Shown: piece by piece, positions 6,671 to 59,811 of the stretch
Layout: every line of letters starts with the position of its first letter
Numbering within the stretch: the first letter of the stretch is position 1
IMG/VR virus record: IMGVR_UViG_3300036794_000042
Span: 9,465-73,464 of that record
Length of the DNA stretch: 64,000 nucleotides
Direction: 5' to 3' (one strand)
Source of the DNA: a virus
Notes under the pieces: generated by a model
The model's database searches: none
Told to the model about the DNA's origin: nothing
What the model saw: the letters and a program-made list of their open reading frames with translations, nothing else
Made by a program: the position numbers and the translations under genes

Positions 6671-6714
6671 AGAGCCCGGCACAGCGAGCAAGATGTGCCG
6701 GGCTCTTTCCTTCC
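6671..6714 (+). terminator. Intrinsic terminator-like hairpin
   Basis: AGAGCCCGGCACA (6671-83) / TGTGCCGGGCTCT (6694-6706) 13-bp stem followed by TTCCTTCC. Confidence 0.7.
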
Positions 6715-6722
6715 CCAAGCGC

Positions 6723-6751
6723 GTGCAAAGGCGAAATCGCTCTGTTATCGT
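6723..6751 (+). promoter_or_regulatory. Putative SigA-type promoter for the LysM/Rpf gene
   Basis: GTGCAA-17 bp-TATCGT with an extended TG motif, right after the terminator. Confidence 0.5.
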
Positions 6752-6835
6752 CCGGGGAAGTCAGGCGCTGGCCCGGTTCCAGCCCCACCCCGAGGTAATG
6801 GCCCGGATCGCGCAACCTGCGAGCAAAGGATAGCT

Positions 6836-7567
6836 GTGTACCGTGCTGTTCTCTATGCCCTTTCAGCGGTAGTCCTGGTCTTTTTCGCACTGATGCCCCG
6901 GGCGGGTGTCACCCATGCACCACCTGGCATGGTCTTTGCCAGATACGGCCCCGGAAATGGCCCGGCAGCGGTCTCCAAGACGATCTCGATCCAGACGAGT
7001 TACAAGGTCAGGCAGGGCGACACCCTCAGCTCGATCGCCCGGCACGTCTACGGCCACGCCAGCCGGTGGCCGGCGCTCTGGTACACCAACCGCAAGAAGG
7101 TCCATAACCCGAACGCCCTGGACGCCGGGGTGACGCTCCAGCTCAGCGCCTGGCACCCGCGCAAGAGCTGGATCTTGCACAAGGCGCTCAACCACATCCC
7201 CAAGCCGCCGCCGCCACCGGCCCCGGCACCCGTCCAGGCAGCAGCGCCCGCAGCGGCCACGGCCGCGTCAGACGCCCAGCCCGCAGCAGACCCGGCACCG
7301 GCAGCCGCGCCAGCGGAGAACGTCTCCACGGCTGGCATGGGCAGCTTCCAGAGCTGCGTGATCAACGCGGAGAGCGGCGGCAACAGCCAGGTGATGAACA
7401 GCACCGGGCACTACGGCCTGTACCAGTTCAGCGCACAGACCTGGGCGGCGCACGGCGGCAACCCGGCTGACTTCGGCCATGCGTCGGTGGCCGAGCAGAA
7501 CCAGGTCTTCGCCAGCACCTATGCCCAGGACGGCACCAGCGACTGGGCACCCTATGACGGATGCTGA
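6836..7567 (+). CDS. Secreted LysM + resuscitation-promoting-factor (Rpf)-like transglycosylase
   Basis: AAAGGA RBS + GTG 6836; signal peptide/TM; LysM (YKVRQGDTLSSIA...NPNAL); Pro/Ala linker; Rpf-like core CVINAESGG...GLYQF...TW...EQ...W..C with catalytic Glu. Confidence 0.85.
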   Translation: MYRAVLYALSAVVLVFFALMPRAGVTHAPPGMVFARYGPGNGPAAVSKTISIQTSYKVRQGDTLSSIARHVYGHASRWPALWYTNRKKVHNPNALDAGVTLQLSAWHPRKSWILHKALNHIPKPPPPPAPAPVQAAAPAAATAASDAQPAADPAPAAAPAENVSTAGMGSFQSCVINAESGGNSQVMNSTGHYGLYQFSAQTWAAHGGNPADFGHASVAEQNQVFASTYAQDGTSDWAPYDGC

Positions 7568-12396: not shown

Positions 12397-13980
12397 ATGG
12401 CTGCCCGCGACCCGCAAACTGCCCAGGTTCTGGCGTTCCCCGACCTGAAGCCTGCCACCAGGCGCGAGATCCTGGGCAAGGAGCTGGGCACCCAGTTCGA
12501 CATGTCCAACCGGCTCTTCGCCTACTTTGGCGATGGGGATGTCTTCGATTACGGCGAGTGGACCAGCCGTGACATGAAGGGGATGTTCCGCCGCGACGGC
12601 ATCTGCCAGGCCATCGAGTCCGTGCTGACCCTGCCGATCCGTGAGGCTGACTACACCATCGAGCCGGCCAAGGGCGACCAGGGCGAAGCGGAGCTGGCCC
12701 ACTCGGTGATCATGACGCCGGACGCCTTCGGCGGGATGCAGACCCCGGTCAGTGAGCTGGTCGGCCAGATCACCTCAGCCCAGGTCTACCGCCGCGCCTT
12801 CTTCGAGAAGGTCTGGAAGATCCGCGAGGATGACGGCGCGGTGATCTACGACAAGCTGGCGTTCAGGCCGCCCGCGACCTGCCAGGCGAAGTACACCGAC
12901 CGGGGCGGCGTGCCGAACGGCTTCCGCCAGCAGGTCTGGCTGTTCGGCGGGAATCTCAAGACGCTGAGCACGCAGAAGGTGCCCGGCTACGTGGACATCC
13001 CCAAGGTCCGCAGCTACATCTACACCCACGGCAAGCACAGGGAGCCGCTGACGGGTGTCTCAGAAATGGACGTTGCCTACTGGTGCTACCAGACCAAGAT
13101 GAAGATCCTTTATCTCTGGTACCACTTCCTGGAGAACCAGGCCCTGCCCAGGGTGATTGTCTACGGCAACGACCAGCCAGAGGCGAACACCCGCGCCGAT
13201 GACATCGCGGCGCTGAAGAGCAGCGGCGTGGTCGGCATCACTCATCCCGAGGCGGGCCAGAAGGCATTCGACGTCATCGAGAACAGCGGGGACGCGGGCA
13301 AGTTCTTCCTGGACGCGCTCGGCTTCCTGGAGGGCTGGCAGACCCACTCGGTGCTGGCCGGATTTATGGCGCTGACCGGCTCCGCAACCGGGGGCAAGGG
13401 CAGCTACGCCCTGAGCCAGGACCAGAGCAGCTTCTATCTCAAGAGCCGCCAGGGCGTCGCCAAGGAGATCGCCAGCTCGATCACCCAGGATGTGCTCACC
13501 CCGCTAGTCGCGGTCAACTTCGGCCCGAGGGCGGCGTTCCCGCGCTGGAAGTTCGGCCCGCTCCAGGATGAGCAGATTCAGGCGCTGCTGACGCTGTTCG
13601 GCCAGATGAGCGCCGCGCCCGTGCTGCACGTCCCGCTGCCTGTGTTCGACCTGATCACCGAGCGGATGGCCACCATCCTCCAGCTCGATGTGGACCAGGT
13701 GCATGAGGCGCTGGTCAGCACCGCCCAGCAACGTGCCGAGCAGCTACAGGCCAGCGCGCCACCGGGGATGCCGCCCAACGCGGCTAACTCGATCGGGGCG
13801 CTGAACGGGATGGCCGGGGCTGCGGCTGGCATGATGCAGCGCGCCCAGGCCGGCCAGAACCCGCTGCCGAACGCGCCCAGCAAGACCACCTCGCTGCCAG
13901 CAGTCACGCCCAATGGCGGCGGCCCGCCAAGGCCGCCAGCCAAGCCGCCGATGGTGCCGCCACCCGGGCAGATGGCGTGA
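12397..13980 (+). CDS. Portal protein (DUF935 / Mu gp29-like)
   Basis: First structural gene after TerL; 527 aa; D..C..IE..L..PI...DY.IEP, FFEKVW and GS.AL..DQ patterns of DUF935 portals; Pro-rich tail. Confidence 0.85.
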   Translation: MAARDPQTAQVLAFPDLKPATRREILGKELGTQFDMSNRLFAYFGDGDVFDYGEWTSRDMKGMFRRDGICQAIESVLTLPIREADYTIEPAKGDQGEAELAHSVIMTPDAFGGMQTPVSELVGQITSAQVYRRAFFEKVWKIREDDGAVIYDKLAFRPPATCQAKYTDRGGVPNGFRQQVWLFGGNLKTLSTQKVPGYVDIPKVRSYIYTHGKHREPLTGVSEMDVAYWCYQTKMKILYLWYHFLENQALPRVIVYGNDQPEANTRADDIAALKSSGVVGITHPEAGQKAFDVIENSGDAGKFFLDALGFLEGWQTHSVLAGFMALTGSATGGKGSYALSQDQSSFYLKSRQGVAKEIASSITQDVLTPLVAVNFGPRAAFPRWKFGPLQDEQIQALLTLFGQMSAAPVLHVPLPVFDLITERMATILQLDVDQVHEALVSTAQQRAEQLQASAPPGMPPNAANSIGALNGMAGAAAGMMQRAQAGQNPLPNAPSKTTSLPAVTPNGGGPPRPPAKPPMVPPPGQMA

Positions 13981-14624
13981 CCGCCCAGGCACCGCCGCAG
14001 CAGACCCCGGCCCAGCAGGACACGGAGATGGCCGTGGTCGCGGCTGGCGTGCTGGCTAACGCGGTCACGGTCGCTGATGCCACGGCTGGCCTGATCCTGA
14101 TATTCAAGCGATATTCGATCCGGCCCGCCGCGCTGCGGATCGCCGTGGCCGTGGTGATGGGGATGCCGCCCGACCGGCAGGGCGCGATGGGCAGCGCCAC
14201 CATGACGGTCTCGAACCTGAACGTCGTGCGCCGTGCCCAGTTCCTGGTGGCCGCAGCCCGGCGCGTCAACTCAGACATCCAGCAGGCCATCTCGACCCGG
14301 GGCAGCGTGCGCGAGGCCATCGCCACGGCGCTGGTCCGCGAGCGCCGGTACTACGGCCAGCACCTCCAGGCCGGGTGGAACCGGATGGACGCGGCGGCCC
14401 GGACAGACTCGGCGGCGATGCTGTACGGCACGCTGCTGAGCTGGAACGCGGTGATGGACCGCAGCACCAGCGCCGAATGCCGGGCAGCGGACGGCTCGAA
14501 CTACCGGGCCGACGTCATGCCCTGGCTGGGCTACCCGGGCATGGTCCACCCGCACTGCCGCTGCTACCCGGGACCGCCGATCGACGGGGCCAAGACCATC
14601 CCGGCGTGGCGGCCTGGTGGGTGA
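13977..14624 (+). CDS. MuF-like minor head protein (short form, no toxin extension)
   Basis: WNAVMD..T..EC...DG and PG..HPHCRC MuF signatures, directly after the portal. Confidence 0.85.
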   Translation: MTAQAPPQQTPAQQDTEMAVVAAGVLANAVTVADATAGLILIFKRYSIRPAALRIAVAVVMGMPPDRQGAMGSATMTVSNLNVVRRAQFLVAAARRVNSDIQQAISTRGSVREAIATALVRERRYYGQHLQAGWNRMDAAARTDSAAMLYGTLLSWNAVMDRSTSAECRAADGSNYRADVMPWLGYPGMVHPHCRCYPGPPIDGAKTIPAWRPGG

Positions 14625-44162: not shown

Positions 44163-44456
44163 ATGTTCGCCAACCAGAACAGCGCACCCAACATCGCGGC
44201 GGCTGCGGCCACGATCCTGCGCAACCTGCGGGACGCCATCGCGGAGGAAGAGAAGTTCTATAAGTGGCTGTCTGAGCAGACCGATACGGATCTGACGAAC
44301 GCGGGCTTCACCGACCCGCAGGACATCGCCTTCCTGCGCAGCGCGTTCACCGACCAGCACAATCTGTTCACCATCGCCTACGGCGGCCCGGTGCCGCAGG
44401 GCGTCACGCTGCCAACCGACTTCACCGCGAACGCCACACAGGTGATCGGGGTCTAG
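44163..44456 (+). CDS. Hypothetical protein (possible fibre chaperone)
   Basis: AGGAG RBS; follows the fibre gene. Confidence 0.6.
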   Translation: MFANQNSAPNIAAAAATILRNLRDAIAEEEKFYKWLSEQTDTDLTNAGFTDPQDIAFLRSAFTDQHNLFTIAYGGPVPQGVTLPTDFTANATQVIGV

Positions 44457-44845
44457 CGGGTCACCGGGATGCCGTAGAACTTCGCCCAGTGCAGCAGCTT
44501 GCCGCTCGGCGGCGGCAGCGACCCGCAGCCCTTGCCGATGTAGCTGTTCCGGTTGTTGACGATGTACGTCACGATGAGCTGGCTTGGTGCCGTGGCCGGG
44601 GGAGTAGTGGCCGGCTCGATGAGAGCGATCTCCCTGATGGCCGCGCAGTCGGCGGTGATCTCCATCTGCTGGCGGGACAGCAGCAGCCCGCCGACGATCA
44701 GCGCGATCAGGACCACGGCCGCCAAGGCCGCCACCCCGTACCAGCGCAGCCGGTGGAAGGTCTTCACGGTGTGCCGGAGCTGTTCATCCAGCTCGGCCAC
44801 CGGCTTCGGCTCGGGAACTTCCGGGGTCGGCTGGAAGCTGCTCAT
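44453..44845 (-). CDS. Single-TM membrane protein (lysis-cassette type), inverted
   Basis: TM WYGVAALAAVVLIALIVGGLLL, two Cys in the C-terminal domain; coupled by ATGA overlap to 44842..45285. Confidence 0.65.
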   Translation of the reverse strand: MSSFQPTPEVPEPKPVAELDEQLRHTVKTFHRLRWYGVAALAAVVLIALIVGGLLLSRQQMEITADCAAIREIALIEPATTPPATAPSQLIVTYIVNNRNSYIGKGCGSLPPPSGKLLHWAKFYGIPVTR

Positions 44846-45285
44846 CCTGCCTCCGCTGCGGAGATCTGGGTGGCGATGCCCTGGACCACCTGGAGGATGC
44901 GGGCGCTCTGCTCGATGCCAGCGGCCAGCCGGGCATCCATCGCCTCCACGGCGCTGCGGCCGGTCACCATGTCCTGGAGGGTGGAGATCTGGCCGCGCAG
45001 CTCAGCGATCTGCCGGTCCTTCTCGGCCATGCTCTCGCCCAGCTTGATGATCTGGTCATCCTGGGTCTCAATGTGAGCGTCCTGGGCCTTGGATTTGGCC
45101 TCCCACGCTTCGGCAGCCTGCTTGTAGACCGCCACGGTCTGCGTGTTCCTCTGAATCTTCCAGCTCCCGCCCGCGATGCCAGCCGCAGTGACCAGGAACG
45201 TGAGAACCGCAATCAGGGTCAGGACAAGGCTGCCGCTGAAGGTGATGCCTCCAGACGCAACAGCAACGGCCAGCCCGGTGATCAC
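44842..45285 (-). CDS. TM + coiled-coil protein (lysis-cassette type), inverted
   Basis: N-terminal hydrophobic segments, then heptads (IKLGESMAEKDRQIAELRGQISTLQ). Confidence 0.65.
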   Translation of the reverse strand: MITGLAVAVASGGITFSGSLVLTLIAVLTFLVTAAGIAGGSWKIQRNTQTVAVYKQAAEAWEAKSKAQDAHIETQDDQIIKLGESMAEKDRQIAELRGQISTLQDMVTGRSAVEAMDARLAAGIEQSARILQVVQGIATQISAAEAG

Positions 45286-45371: not shown

Positions 45372-46265
45372 ATGACGATCCAGACATTCGATGTAACCGG
45401 GGCAGCCAGCGCACAGGGCCTGGACGTCTCCAACTTCCAGGGCCGGTTTGACTGGGCCGGGGCTAAGAAGAACGTGCCCAATCTCGCCTTCGGCATCCAC
45501 CGGCTCACCCAGGGCCTGGGCACGCCGGGCACCAACTCGCCGGACCCCGATGCGACCTGGAACCACCAGCAGATCACTGCCATCGGCATCGACCGTGGCG
45601 CGTACCACTTCATGGACCCGCGCGAGGACGGCACCAAGCAGGCCAACTACTTCGTCACCAACCTCCAGAAGGTCGGCCTGCGCACCACGGACATCCTGAT
45701 GCTGGACAACGAGACGGCTGGCAGCACGCCGGCCACCACGGCCCAGGTGGCCCGGGACTTCATGAACCGGCTGGACCAGCTCTGCCCGCACAACCCGCGC
45801 GGCGTCTACACCTTCATCAGCTTCGCCAACGAGGGCAACTGCGCCGGGCTCGGGCACTATGACCTCTGGCTGGCCTTCCCGAACCTCACCGCGCCAGCCG
45901 CGCCGCCGCCGTGGCTGGGCTCGATGTTCAGGTTCTGGCAGTGGGGCCAGCGCCGGGGCACCGACGCGGACGCCTTCATGGGCACCGTGAGCCAGCTCAA
46001 GACCTGGATCAACAAGTTCCAGCCCGCGCCGCCGCCGCCAGCTCTCAAGCCCAACCCGGACGGCAGCTTCACGATGGACGGGCACACCACCCTCCGCAGC
46101 TTCGCCCATGCCCACGGCAACACGGTGCTGGGCGTCATGCTCGACACCATCAAGGCCAAGGGCGGGGATCTAGGGCCAGGGCAGCGGGACCTGTTCAGCG
46201 CCCTGGTCAACTCCGGCAGCGTGGCGGACGAGAAGATCGGCCAGGGCACCGAGCTGTGGCCCTGA
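45372..46265 (+). CDS. Endolysin, glycoside hydrolase family 25 muramidase
   Basis: GLDVSNFQG, GAYHF, LDNE (DxE), LWLA, FWQW and DAD motifs; Pro linker plus C-terminal domain. Confidence 0.9.
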   Translation: MTIQTFDVTGAASAQGLDVSNFQGRFDWAGAKKNVPNLAFGIHRLTQGLGTPGTNSPDPDATWNHQQITAIGIDRGAYHFMDPREDGTKQANYFVTNLQKVGLRTTDILMLDNETAGSTPATTAQVARDFMNRLDQLCPHNPRGVYTFISFANEGNCAGLGHYDLWLAFPNLTAPAAPPPWLGSMFRFWQWGQRRGTDADAFMGTVSQLKTWINKFQPAPPPPALKPNPDGSFTMDGHTTLRSFAHAHGNTVLGVMLDTIKAKGGDLGPGQRDLFSALVNSGSVADEKIGQGTELWP

Positions 46266-46537
46266 ACAGGCACAAGGAGCGGCTGGAGTGGGTGGTCTCC
46301 ATCCTCACCGGCTACCGCGAGCACGGCATCAAGGTGGTCAGCGTCCGCGAGATGCTGGCGATGATCGAGGATGGCGAGATCCTGGCCGCCGAGAAGCCGG
46401 ACCCCGACGCGGGCGTGCCCGCAGCGCCGCTCGATCCCCGGGCAGACCCGATGACCGGCTGTATGCCGGTCACGGCCGCCGCTGTTTCCCGTGAAACATC
46501 GGGGGCACCTACCGGGACGAATGGAGGCGCGTCATGA
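46262..46537 (+). CDS. Hypothetical protein (start uncertain: CTG 46262 or GTG 46291)
   Basis: Protein-like LNRHKERLEWVVSILTGYREHG...; fills the gap between the endolysin and the next gene. Confidence 0.45.
   Translation: MNRHKERLEWVVSILTGYREHGIKVVSVREMLAMIEDGEILAAEKPDPDAGVPAAPLDPRADPMTGCMPVTAAAVSRETSGAPTGTNGGAS
46483..46498. promoter_or_regulatory. parS-like ParB-binding palindrome
   Basis: TGTTTCCCGTGAAACA, 15/16 match to the Firmicute/Actinobacterial consensus TGTTTCACGTGAAACA; reads VSRET on both strands. Confidence 0.7.
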
Positions 46538-46692
46538 TCGTGCTCGGAGTCCTGCTGATCGTGGTCGGCCTGCTGGTGGCCAAGCTGGCCATCCTGGTCA
46601 CCATCGGCATCATTGTCCTGGTCATCGGCCTGCTCCTGCTGGTGCTCGGCTACGCCGGCCACCCGGTGGGCGGCAGGCGGTACTGGTACTAG
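46534..46692 (+). CDS. Small two-TM membrane protein (DUF6131-like; possible holin), not in the ORF track
   Basis: GGAGG RBS; MIVLGVLLIVVGLLVAKLAILVTIGIIVLVIGLLLLVLGYAGHPVGGRRYWY. Confidence 0.75.
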   Translation: MIVLGVLLIVVGLLVAKLAILVTIGIIVLVIGLLLLVLGYAGHPVGGRRYWY

Positions 46693-46808: not shown

Positions 46809-47390
46809 CTAGTGGGCGTTCAGGCCCTGGAAATAGCCGTTCATCCCGTCCGTCTTCACGGTCCAGTCGTGACCGGCGATGTTGTTGCTCGATGCGTCCC
46901 AGTTCGGGCCGAATAGCTGGGAGCAGTACCGGCTGACCCACTTGATCCCGTTGGAGGTCACATCGAAGCCCCAGATCGTCCCGTTGTCGCTCTGGTTCGG
47001 CTTGACCACGATGCTGTTGCAGTTGTCGGCGGCGGCCATGAACTTGCCGTCTGCACCGAGGACCAGCGGCCCCTCAGTCAGCCCGTTGAAGGTGCCGCCA
47101 TCGTTGCAGAACTTGAGCGACCGGGCCGAGTTGGTGTCTTCCTCGAATGGTGCGAAGTTCGACAGGCTCGGGGCATTGAGCCAGAGGTTGCTGCCGTTGC
47201 GGGTGTTGTAGGTGTTCAGGCCGCCGCAGTTGGCAACCGTCCCGTCCGCCATCGTGATGTGCGAGCTGCTGCCGATGACGCCCGGGTGGTGGCCCGCCGT
47301 GGCCGCCCCGGCCGGGCTGGCTGCCAGGGCACCCATTCCCGCCAGCATGACCGTTGAAGCCAGGCCGCCGATCCATCGTCCGTATCTCAT
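46809..47390 (-). CDS. Secreted protein (Sec signal peptide; Asn/Gly-rich, four Cys)
   Basis: GGAGG RBS before ATG 47390; MRYGRW...ASPAGA signal with an AxA cleavage site. Confidence 0.7.
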   Translation of the reverse strand: MRYGRWIGGLASTVMLAGMGALAASPAGAATAGHHPGVIGSSSHITMADGTVANCGGLNTYNTRNGSNLWLNAPSLSNFAPFEEDTNSARSLKFCNDGGTFNGLTEGPLVLGADGKFMAAADNCNSIVVKPNQSDNGTIWGFDVTSNGIKWVSRYCSQLFGPNWDASSNNIAGHDWTVKTDGMNGYFQGLNAH

Positions 47391-47485: not shown

Positions 47486-47989
47486 TTAGCCCATCGTCTT
47501 GTTCACGGCGTACTGCGCCTGGGCCTCGGTGAAGCCCTCGCCTGCCTTGGAAGTGAGCTGCTGCATCAGCCCGGACGGGCTGAATCCAGACCCGTCGCTG
47601 AGGTAGCCCCTGGCGGACAGCACTGCCTGATGGTCCCAGTTCGGGTGCAGGAACCTGATGGCGAACGCCGCGTCCTTCCGGGCGAAGCCCTCGCCCGCGC
47701 TGGAGGTGAGCTGCTGCATCAGGCCGTAGCGGCTGAAGCCCTGGCCATCGGTCAGGTACTGCGCGGCGGTCTCAACCGCCTGCTGCTGGGCCGCCGTGAT
47801 GGTGTGCTGGGGCCTGGGCTTGTGCGTTGCGGCTGGTGCCGCTGCCGCCACTCCCGAGCTGGACGGTGCCTGGGTAGACACCGTGACCGTGGGCGCGGGT
47901 CTCGCCGCGCTGTGCGTGCTAGCGCATCCGGCCAGCACGCCAGCGGCCAGGGCCGCTGCGGCCAGTGCGGCCTGTCCTATCTTGATCAA
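47486..47989 (-). CDS. ltp: Ltp-family lipoprotein (superinfection exclusion-like)
   Basis: Lipobox VLAG-C; two tandem Ltp-type HTH repeats (A...A..YL....GFS..GL.QQL...GEGF...A.YA). Confidence 0.85.
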   Translation of the reverse strand: MIKIGQAALAAAALAAGVLAGCASTHSAARPAPTVTVSTQAPSSSGVAAAAPAATHKPRPQHTITAAQQQAVETAAQYLTDGQGFSRYGLMQQLTSSAGEGFARKDAAFAIRFLHPNWDHQAVLSARGYLSDGSGFSPSGLMQQLTSKAGEGFTEAQAQYAVNKTMG

Positions 47990-57555: not shown

Positions 57556-59419
57556 CGAATAGCACGCCCTGCCCGGACTCGGCTGGCTCGGCCCCGGTCA
57601 CGATCCAGCGCAGCAGATCCGCGTCACGGGTCACGTTCATGACCCGCTCGGCCTTCTCTTCACCGAGCTGGAACAGGCCCTCTTCAACGGTGTGCGGGGT
57701 GATCGAGTAGATCACCCGCACGGCCTTCTCCTGGCCGATCCGGTCCACCCGGCCGATCTTCTGCTCGCGGCTGCGGAACACCGGGTCCGGCTGGGCGAAG
57801 AAGATGGTGCTGGCCGCCGTCAGGGTGATGGCCTCGCTGCCGGCCGCGTTGATGAAGCAGACCTGCACGTCCCCGCGCTGGAACATCTCGGCCGCCGAGT
57901 CCTTCTCCATGCTGGTCATGCCGCCGACGATCCTGCTGCTGGTGATCTTGAACTTGCCGATATACCCAGTCATCAGCTCAATGAGCTGCGGGCTGTTGGC
58001 GGCCACCACGAGCTGGTCAGTCGGCTCGTCCATGATGAAGTCAAGCAGGTCATCGGCCTTGGATGACGGCGCGGTCATGCGCACCAGGTCCGTGGTGAAG
58101 CCCTGGGCATCCTCGCCGTGGGTCACCTCCACGGTCGAGACCGCCATCTGGCACAGGCGGCTGAACAGCACCCCGCTGTTGGCCGGCACGATGGTGGAGG
58201 GCTCCAGGTCGGCCAGCAGCTCCTTCCTGAGCTGCTTGTAGACCCTGGCCTGGGCCGGGGGCATCTCCGGGTAGCGGAACACCGGGTCCAGCCTTGGCGG
58301 CTGCCACGGCCGCGCGATCTCCTTGGGGATGCGGCGGATCAGCGGCTGCACCAGAGAATGGAAAGTGCGCGCCGTGTCCGGCCTGATGTCCAGCACCTCC
58401 ATCCCGCCGTGCCAGGCGTACTCCTTGATGGCGAACAGATCCAGGTACCGCGAGCGCGACGGCCATGCCCGTGGGTCGATGCCGTGCAGAATCGGCCAGA
58501 GATCATTGATCGTGTCCCCGATCATGGTGCCGGTGACGGCCCAGAAGTTCTCCGCGTGGTGGGCCAGCCACCAGACGGCTCTGGTCTGCTTGCTGCGGGC
58601 ATCCTGCATCCGGTGCGCCTCATCAGCGATCACCGTCTGGATGCGGAAGCCCTTGCGGTTCAGCTCCTTCTCGTGCAGGTCACAGCGGCCCGGGGTGGTC
58701 TTCGGGTCCTGGCCGCCGTGCTCCGGGCACCTGGCGAACGCCACGCCGGGGTACCTCGCCAGCCGGGTGTGCGTGCGCACCGATGACCAGGCCATGACAT
58801 AGACGTCAGCAGGCTCTTCGAGCGCCCGCCGCCGCCTCAGCGCGGTGCCGTCCACCACGGAGACCTTCAGCTCAGGTGCCCAGCGGTCGAACTCGCGCTT
58901 CCAGTTGTAGAGCGCCGCGCCGGGGGCGACCACCACGGCTGGCAGCCCGCCGCCCTGGCCGCGCTGCTCCAGCACCTGGAGCGCCCGGATCACCATCGGG
59001 GTCTTCCCGTTGCCCTGCGGGTCGCCCAGGATGTCCCGACGCCAGCGCACCAGCCAGGCTGTCCCGCCGCGCTGCGGCAGGAACAGCTTGCGCTCAGCGC
59101 CCTTCTCGATGGCGTCGATCTCCCTGGCGATGTGCGGCGGGGCGTCCAGTTCCTGGCGCATCGCGTAGCGCTCCTGGACGCCCTGCCAGCACGCCTCCCC
59201 GTACTTGGCCAGGGACGGCCGGATGTCGAGCGGCTGGCTGCCCCAGACCTCGCGCAGGCAGGCATAGGCGGGCCAGCTCAGATCGACCCGCCAGATGCCG
59301 TCCGCCTTGTCGTAGTTGCACCCGGGGATCTGCTCGGCCAGGTGGTGCTCAGCCTTGGGGCAGCCAATCGCCAGCCTTGGCGGCTCTACGGTTGAGTCGA
59401 TCGCTGCCCAGCTAGTCAC
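57548..59419 (-). CDS. SNF2-like DEAH helicase
   Basis: GTG 59419; DPQGNGKT, DEAH, TGT, ITLTAA, GRVDRIGQ motifs. Confidence 0.9.
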   Translation of the reverse strand: MTSWAAIDSTVEPPRLAIGCPKAEHHLAEQIPGCNYDKADGIWRVDLSWPAYACLREVWGSQPLDIRPSLAKYGEACWQGVQERYAMRQELDAPPHIAREIDAIEKGAERKLFLPQRGGTAWLVRWRRDILGDPQGNGKTPMVIRALQVLEQRGQGGGLPAVVVAPGAALYNWKREFDRWAPELKVSVVDGTALRRRRALEEPADVYVMAWSSVRTHTRLARYPGVAFARCPEHGGQDPKTTPGRCDLHEKELNRKGFRIQTVIADEAHRMQDARSKQTRAVWWLAHHAENFWAVTGTMIGDTINDLWPILHGIDPRAWPSRSRYLDLFAIKEYAWHGGMEVLDIRPDTARTFHSLVQPLIRRIPKEIARPWQPPRLDPVFRYPEMPPAQARVYKQLRKELLADLEPSTIVPANSGVLFSRLCQMAVSTVEVTHGEDAQGFTTDLVRMTAPSSKADDLLDFIMDEPTDQLVVAANSPQLIELMTGYIGKFKITSSRIVGGMTSMEKDSAAEMFQRGDVQVCFINAAGSEAITLTAASTIFFAQPDPVFRSREQKIGRVDRIGQEKAVRVIYSITPHTVEEGLFQLGEEKAERVMNVTRDADLLRWIVTGAEPAESGQGVLFDG

Positions 59420-59811
59420 CCTGCTGCCTCCATCGCGTCCGCGTAAGCCAGCCGGAGGCGCTTGCTGTAGTAGTAGCCGTCCCCGGTGGTCTTCTTGTGC
59501 CACTCATCGCTCATGCCGTTGGCGTCGGCCCACTCGCGGACCTTCTTGCCCGCACCGCTGCCGGGCGCAAGCTGCCCGCGCGTCAGGGTGCGGTTCCGGC
59601 GCGGCTTGGGCGGCGGCCCGTCCAGCTTCAGGCCGGCCCGCTTGCAGCGTTCCAGCGTCTCACGGAGCATCTTGTAGTGCTCACTGGTCAGGTCTAGCTG
59701 GTACCAGGCTCCGTCGATGCCGACGTGATCGGTCACGCTGGCCTCGATCCTGATGCCGTGCTCGTCCAGCTCCCAGTCATCCCAGAGCCGGGGCACCAGT
59801 TCCTGGGCCAT
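59416..59811 (-). CDS. lsr2: Lsr2-family protein with a divergent DNA-binding domain
   Basis: Lsr2 dimerisation domain (V.IDG..Y.LDL..EH...LR..L....AG) and VREWA.ANG; no RGR. Confidence 0.8.
   Translation of the reverse strand: MAQELVPRLWDDWELDEHGIRIEASVTDHVGIDGAWYQLDLTSEHYKMLRETLERCKRAGLKLDGPPPKPRRNRTLTRGQLAPGSGAGKKVREWADANGMSDEWHKKTTGDGYYYSKRLRLAYADAMEAAG

Follow-up and report, generated by a model that had tools for sequence, protein, structure and literature searches.

A putative host-type parS centromere in an actinobacteriophage genome without recognisable par genes

The phage genome analysed here contains a parS-like 16-mer, TGTTTCCCGTGAAACA, which on the strength of sequence comparison we judge to be a true case of host centromere piracy, as it is known from phi29. 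The site occupies positions 46483-46498 of the window, a term that denotes the whole stretch of 64,000 nucleotides under study (bases 9465-73464 of a 74,957-bp IMG/VR record with a CheckV completeness of 99%). We lean slightly towards the explanation that it is a selected, ParB-loading site used for the positioning or inheritance of the unintegrated phage genome; the phage would then probably borrow the ParB of its host, in a manner similar to phi29. The site and its immediate surroundings comprise the following features:

45372..46265, plus strand: GH25 endolysin, immediately 5' of the 93-aa ORF
46256..46537, plus strand: 93-aa ORF of unknown function without Pfam or PHROG match, with the site in a C-terminal tail of low conservation (V77-T81)
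46475..46506, no strand assigned: imperfect inverted repeat around the site; RNA fold of -18.5 kcal/mol, z = -2.74; absent from the related contig L120
46483..46498, no strand assigned: putative host-type parS 16-mer TGTTTCCCGTGAAACA, the same sequence as the Thermus thermophilus chromosomal parS, with a 14-bp core that is the prevailing form in Kineosporiaceae
46534..46692, plus strand: 52-aa DUF6131 membrane protein, final gene of the rightward late/lysis operon

The 16-mer differs from the consensus TGTTTCACGTGAAACA at a single position, with A changed to C at position 7, and 15 of the 16 positions of the chromosomal-type palindrome TGTTNCACGTGAAACA agree, as had been recorded in the initial annotation. 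It is the sole match to TGTTTCACGTGAAACA with at most two mismatches within the window, and none of 100 shuffles of the window yielded such a match. The initial annotation had also proposed a scan of the remaining genome for more parS sites; no second site with at most one mismatch was found in the whole 74,957-bp virus record. Markov models of order 0 to 3, trained on the phage's own genome, gave a chance expectation of 5e-5 to 9e-5 sites with at most one mismatch per 75 kb, in agreement with an earlier hand estimate of ~1e-4.

Further comparisons indicated that the departure from the consensus corresponds to a natural form of the centromere. T. thermophilus HB27 has one chromosomal parS, which has exactly the sequence TGTTTCCCGTGAAACA and lies inside gidB (denoted parSc); the ParBc protein of this bacterium binds it specifically in competition EMSA with the wild-type parSc probe, and a plasmid-borne copy nucleates ParBc-sGFP foci in Escherichia coli (PMC4409726). 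The 16-mer is thus a sequence bound by a chromosomal ParB, and it is tabulated also in a review (PMC7022226). Closer to the phage, a metagenome-assembled genome (MAG) titled 'uncultured Kineosporiaceae bacterium' (G014) holds a contig of the same phage family. In this genome parB is located at C46:27200-27490 and is preceded, within 3.8 kb, by three exact and two near copies of GTTTCCCGTGAAAC; the three exact copies of this 14-bp core fall within 3.1 kb. Adjacency of the variant core to parB was examined in G014 (C46:23415-27490; L208, L211, L231), and the presence of the core was surveyed more widely. It occurs in 42 of the 49 genomes of G014's family, mostly in clusters of two to seven copies within a few kb, as compared with no matches for the reversed control in these 49 genomes and just 12 genomes with the canonical parS core. 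Class-wide, the variant core was present in 41 of 301 sampled genomes versus 3 control matches. The parS form of the phage is therefore found, beside parB in G014 and across its family and class, in a plausible host lineage.

As an observation in its own right, the asymmetric GTTTCCCGTGAAAC replaces the canonical palindrome as the main form in G014's family, which amounts to a lineage-wide shift of the centromere sequence and may reflect an altered ParB specificity.

Judged by these identities, the phage site appears to be an authentic chromosomal-type parS form, one that is the main centromere of some actinobacteria. The label 'one mismatch from consensus' would accordingly undersell it, and the variant base is in all appearance no defect. 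Because the variant is the dominant parS form of Kineosporiaceae, it may also help to identify the host; we regard this putative Kineosporiaceae-type variant as a clue and not as proof, and relatives fall into MAG bins of Streptosporangiaceae, Actinospica, Mycobacterium and Kineosporiaceae. We rejected a capture of the site from host DNA, as there is no similarity between the flanks of the phage site and G014.

The phage constitutes a new lineage of actinophages and encodes a replication module of its own, an assignment that follows from capsid similarities and gene content. Its capsid protein is ~36% identical to capsids of Gordonia, Mycobacterium, Rhodococcus, Corynebacterium and Streptomyces phages, and searches with the terminase, lysin and capsid protein returned distant actinophages only. 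The GC content of the window is 67.7%, with GC3 near 0.9 in genes. The replication genes encode PolA, an SNF2 helicase and a Prim-Pol together with a D5-type helicase; a PD-(D/E)XK nuclease, AAA_24, a Mu-type portal and MuF are also encoded, the MuF-like gene being located at window positions 13977-14624 (PF04233). No tRNAs were found in the phage. An enzyme that combines LysM with an Rpf-type transglycosylase domain (PF06737) is encoded far from the lysis cassette, at 6695-7567 on the plus strand, and is possibly tied to dormant or sporulating hosts. On the minus strand, at 59416-59811, a match to the Lsr2 dimerisation domain scored 28.5 bits, against a Pfam cut-off of 29.6. At each end of the record an ORF is truncated, one on either strand (L121:2-808, minus; L122:942-1757, plus), from which it follows that the record is not circularly closed and falls a little short of completeness, in spite of the CheckV estimate.

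Six-frame HMM searches over the whole record, from which a small end piece may be missing since genes are cut at both ends, revealed no ParB_N (PF02195), ParA-like AAA_31 (PF13614), Phage_integrase or Recombinase domains, extending to the full record what the initial annotation had noted for the window, namely that parA, parB and an integrase are not in view. ParB_N, AAA_31, tyrosine-integrase and serine-recombinase domains are likewise absent from the complete ~75-kb relatives with terminal repeats; a tyrosine integrase was seen among relatives in two 125-kb records only. Nor is the site part of a phage-encoded parABS cassette with adjacent parA and parB, its neighbours being the genes for the GH25 lysin, the 93-aa ORF, the DUF6131 protein, a 217-aa protein and an Ltp-like lipoprotein. 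Given an authentic parS form, the lack of ParB, ParA-like and integrase domains and the precedent of phi29, use of the host ParB is the natural reading. In phi29 there are five parS sites, and the host protein Spo0J helps the phage genome to enter the prespore (PMC2731898). The proposal in the initial annotation that the phage hijacks the host ParABS system is strengthened by the form of the site and by the missing par and integrase domains; its suggestion of an extrachromosomal prophage gained no support. Nothing in the data favours a stable prophage of this type: no clear repressor, plasmid-type replicon, or lysogeny or carrier-state genes were recognised in the genome, the family is without plasmid-type genes, the phage has its own replication module, and the family members found among species-representative genomes are all MAG contigs, none of them from an isolate.

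If the site serves positioning or inheritance through host ParB, dimers of the host chromosomal protein would recognise the palindrome after DNA injection. ParB would then bind CTP, close into clamps, and spread or slide along the neighbouring phage DNA to give a partition complex, which would couple the non-integrated phage genome to host ParA/ParB, polar anchors and SMC. The phage genome would thereby be positioned like an origin region and, with the lytic cycle delayed, be handed on to daughter cells or into spores or dormant cells. We infer these steps from established ParABS biology, and in the same way infer ParB binding in the host and its purpose in segregation or persistence.

The capsid protein defines a family of 179 IMG/VR contigs (87-99% identity) and five MAG contigs. 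The five MAG members, found among 185,579 species-representative genomes, include none from an isolate, and the long ones are phage-sized. A cultured-phage collection contained no close DNA relative; the sole match was 122 nt of the DUF6131 gene to Mycobacterium phage Myrna. Across 18 long records, 50 fragments and two MAG phage contigs of the family, only one further site with at most two mismatches was detected, in a 74,596-bp record with terminal repeats that is rated 100% complete (G002). Any site of this quality is thus carried by two of about nine near-complete family genomes and by none of the 50 shorter fragments. Since most family members are without a site, parS is dispensable and evolutionarily labile in the family.

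The G002 site, CGTTTCACGTGAAACA, has a perfect 14-bp core and lies inside the MuF-like head-morphogenesis gene, where it encodes the peptide G-V-S-R-E-T-R-Y (L210:1501-1516, equivalent to G002:C1:74327-74342; also present in L135). In seven homologues, the window included, the same MuF codons have 8-11 mismatches to parS and encode GVTRERRY, GVARERRY, ALVRERRY and similar peptides. Between G002 and its closest relative 8 of the 16 bases differ, every one of them changed toward parS. The chance expectation in the ~1.75 Mb of relatives is 1-2e-3 sites with at most one mismatch. Within this one ParB-less family, a centromere-like site thus appears to have arisen a second time, independently and de novo, at a position in G002 that is not homologous to that in the window, and this is the strongest sign in our data of what looks like selection for parS-like sites. 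The scan of relatives that the initial annotation had called for accordingly gave a divided answer, with a second, independent site in G002 and none in most of the family.

The location of the G002 site in a different gene also argues against a role tied to local genes, and this bears on the possibility that ParB loads onto the phage DNA for a purpose other than segregation. Such purposes could include titration of ParB from the host origin by hundreds of replicating phage copies, recruitment of SMC to organise the phage DNA, damping of the adjoining lysis genes by the spread of ParB, or marking of the DNA as 'self' against SMC-family defences. The binding-site evidence from T. thermophilus and Kineosporiaceae is the same as that for a segregation site; in addition, the site in the window adjoins the lysis cassette, and a lytic-looking phage, equipped with PolA, primase-helicase and SNF2 and with neither an integrase nor a recognised repressor, is compatible with a function in the lytic phase. 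We nevertheless consider a non-segregation purpose quite unlikely, because with a G002 site in a head-morphogenesis gene local gene regulation would not be expected, and because phi29, the only tested precedent for the use of host parS, concerns segregation (PMC2731898).

We then determined how often the sequence occurs in viral contigs at large. The exact 16-mer TGTTTCCCGTGAAACA was present in at least 118 IMG/VR contigs (L002-L119), and 40 of the contigs listed had a GC content of at least 60%. The reversed control, composed of the same letters backwards, was present in 14 contigs, none of them with GC of at least 60%, so that the 16-mer is at least eight-fold commoner than its control in viral contigs. 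ParB_N was absent from 35 of the 40 listed high-GC records, including seven of the eight with a completeness of 90% or more. Among the high-GC cases the site is flanked by a variety of peptides, and in several it is intergenic, which points to many independent origins or contexts of the 16-mer. Together with the G002 site, this census shows that parS-like sites, as putative centromeres, are recurrently created or kept in this family and in other high-GC phages.

These numbers also allow a pure coincidence to be weighed, that is, a random match that surfaced because very many windows were scanned. With ~250,000 windows scanned, a few chance matches with at most one mismatch are expected somewhere, and the homologous site in the relative L120 (see below) is not conserved. 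Against this, the expectation per genome is the minute figure given above, the match is to one specific natural variant and not to any sequence with one mismatch, and a second, independent site exists in the family. The contrast of 40 to 0 between the 16-mer and its control (among the matches listed) makes pure coincidence very unlikely for this 16-mer in a high-GC viral contig, and we hold it to be highly improbable here.

At its own locus, the site spans codons 77-81 of the 93-aa ORF, and the reading frame gives A-V-S-R-E-T (residues 76-81), which bears out the V-S-R-E-T peptide that had been assigned to it. The stop codon of the ORF overlaps the ATG of the next gene (ATGA overlap). Over the site the codons are GCT GTT TCC CGT GAA ACA, which mostly end in A or T and are unusual for this genome; because the parS motif dictates them, they provide no independent evidence. 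A Protein Atlas search with the 93-aa ORF returned no meaningful match. The leftward genes start at 46809, the first encoding an unknown 217-aa protein and the second the Ltp-like lipoprotein. The latter is of the superinfection-exclusion type (PF07553, phrog_4980; window 47486-47989, minus strand) and is encoded by a phage without a recognisable lysogeny module. Upstream, between the tail genes and the endolysin, are two small opposite-strand genes (window 44453-45285, minus strand), one of which is weakly similar to an Rz-like spanin.

A single homologue of the 93-aa protein was found among 5.8 billion proteins, with 84% identity, on a syntenic 10.2-kb soil contig (L120). The homologous 16-mer of L120, CGTTTCACGTTGAACA, has three mismatches from the consensus; the stop codon of the gene falls inside the site, and the peptide ends with ...NVSR. 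Identity between the window and L120 is 84% in the ORF core, 12-13/16 in the site, 54% in the spacer that follows and 81% in the DUF6131 gene. The site is thus no better conserved than the adjoining coding DNA (12-13/16 as compared with 81-84%). The initial annotation had held that a peptide kept in relatives whose palindrome is lost would speak against a parS function; in the single relative available, V-S-R is kept and the palindrome, with its three mismatches, is gone, so that this pattern is seen in part. The homologous region is absent from 20 long relatives, which are without the gene, and searches by peptide pattern for relatives of the 93-aa protein and the lysin in viral and metagenome contigs yielded none. 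Four soil metagenomes among the sequencing runs contain the stretch or part of it, with no RNA run among them; the contigs of run X2 end before the site. Indels tend to occur immediately 5' of the site (46480-46513), with three additional nucleotides in L120 and three fewer at 46480 in a soil contig of run X4. This X4 contig represents a third relative that spans the site, and its 1-nt deletion at 46513 would alter the frame of the tail.

Wherever the window and L120 differ, at four positions in all, the canonical base is present in one or the other, and in L120 the left half-site is still canonical and uses the same rare codons (GTT TCA CGT). This modestly favours a perfect ancestral parS that would have changed from A7 to C in the window lineage, where it remained a valid form, and decayed in L120; the reading rests on two sequences, from which the direction cannot be proven. 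The same pattern fits a relic, in which a once-useful or recombined parS drifts in both lineages within a weakly constrained gene tail and confers no present benefit, even though ParB may bind it without consequence. Decay of the L120 site to three mismatches, the lack of a site in most relatives, and the position at the border between conserved coding DNA and the 54%-identical spacer are all in keeping with an effectively neutral site of this kind. On the other hand, the copy in the window agrees exactly with a validated parS and with the form that prevails in Kineosporiaceae, whereas imperfections would be the likelier state of a relic subject to drift; G002 with its de novo site, which we take as positive selection within the family, and the high-GC viral contigs, in which the 16-mer far exceeds its control, weigh in the same direction. 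On balance we consider a relic unlikely.

The comparison with L120 is also informative about a role at the RNA level, in which the 93-aa gene would end in a hairpin with an effect on the stability of the mRNA or on how the DUF6131 gene, 36 nt further downstream, is translated, or else about a site for a different DNA-binding protein. An extended, imperfect 32-nt inverted repeat encloses the parS site and reaches beyond the 16-mer, and a 43-nt stretch folds at -18.5 kcal/mol (z = -2.74), a stability equalled by only 1 of 200 shuffles. The fold is lost in L120 (z = -0.81), however, and neither a terminator-like nor a promoter-like site was found at the parS position. Such roles would moreover not account for why the sequence equals parS exactly, why G002 has its site in a different gene or why the 16-mer is in excess across the collection, and we regard them as very improbable.

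If host ParB does load at this site, centromere piracy in the style of phi29 would extend to actinobacterial phages, here to a lytic-looking ~75-kb soil lineage with 179 contig relatives in IMG/VR. No description of host-type parS in actinophages was found in the literature searched. The principle is already known from phi29; the present case adds to it in that the site is identical, base for base, to a validated parS, corresponds to a host variant specific to a lineage, and has a counterpart that a sister phage made by recoding a structural gene. G002 gives the family an additional interest, since one can rarely observe how point mutations assemble a protein-binding site within a conserved phage gene, and the excess of the 16-mer in high-GC viral contigs without ParB suggests a general, little-studied persistence route for non-integrating phages in slow or dormant soil bacteria. 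More speculatively, and with small probability, recoding of their own genes, as in the MuF gene of G002, might time and again provide high-GC soil phages with new host centromeres, tuned to the host variant, as part of a dormancy strategy: silent genomes would reach dormant cells or spores by way of ParB, and the LysM-Rpf enzyme (6695-7567) would help these cells to awaken; or a ParB coat might serve as a 'self' mark against SMC-family defences of the Wadjet/Mks type.

Among known systems, phi29 and Nf (PMC2731898) are the closest in kind: they have no ParB of their own, carry a host ParB-binding sequence, do not integrate, and have the sites in a genome without a par cassette. The phage described here differs from phi29 in having one site with at most two mismatches instead of five, in a presumed host among the actinobacteria and not the firmicutes, and in a ~75-kb siphovirus-like genome as opposed to that of a 19-kb protein-primed podovirus. 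The phi29 sites are linked to sporulation (PMC2731898); that of the present phage is unconserved in the nearest relative. With respect to sequence, the parS of Thermus (PMC4409726) is identical to the phage site over the full 16-mer, and the Kineosporiaceae sites are identical over the 14-bp core. Like many chromosomal parS sites, that of the phage lies inside a coding region; the Thermus and Kineosporiaceae sites adjoin parAB near oriC on the chromosome, while the phage site is on a virus without par genes. A third comparison is with actinobacteriophages of the RedRock type without integrase, which, in work by Dedrick et al. from 2016 (cited in PMC12704722), reportedly carry parABS cassettes. 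Phages of this type encode their own ParA and ParB, and their parS consists of phage-specific arrays of short repeats. The present phage resembles them as an actinophage without integrase that carries the element near the centre of the genome, after the structural and lysis genes; it departs from them in having no parA or parB, and in a site that is, by its sequence, apparently of the host chromosomal type.
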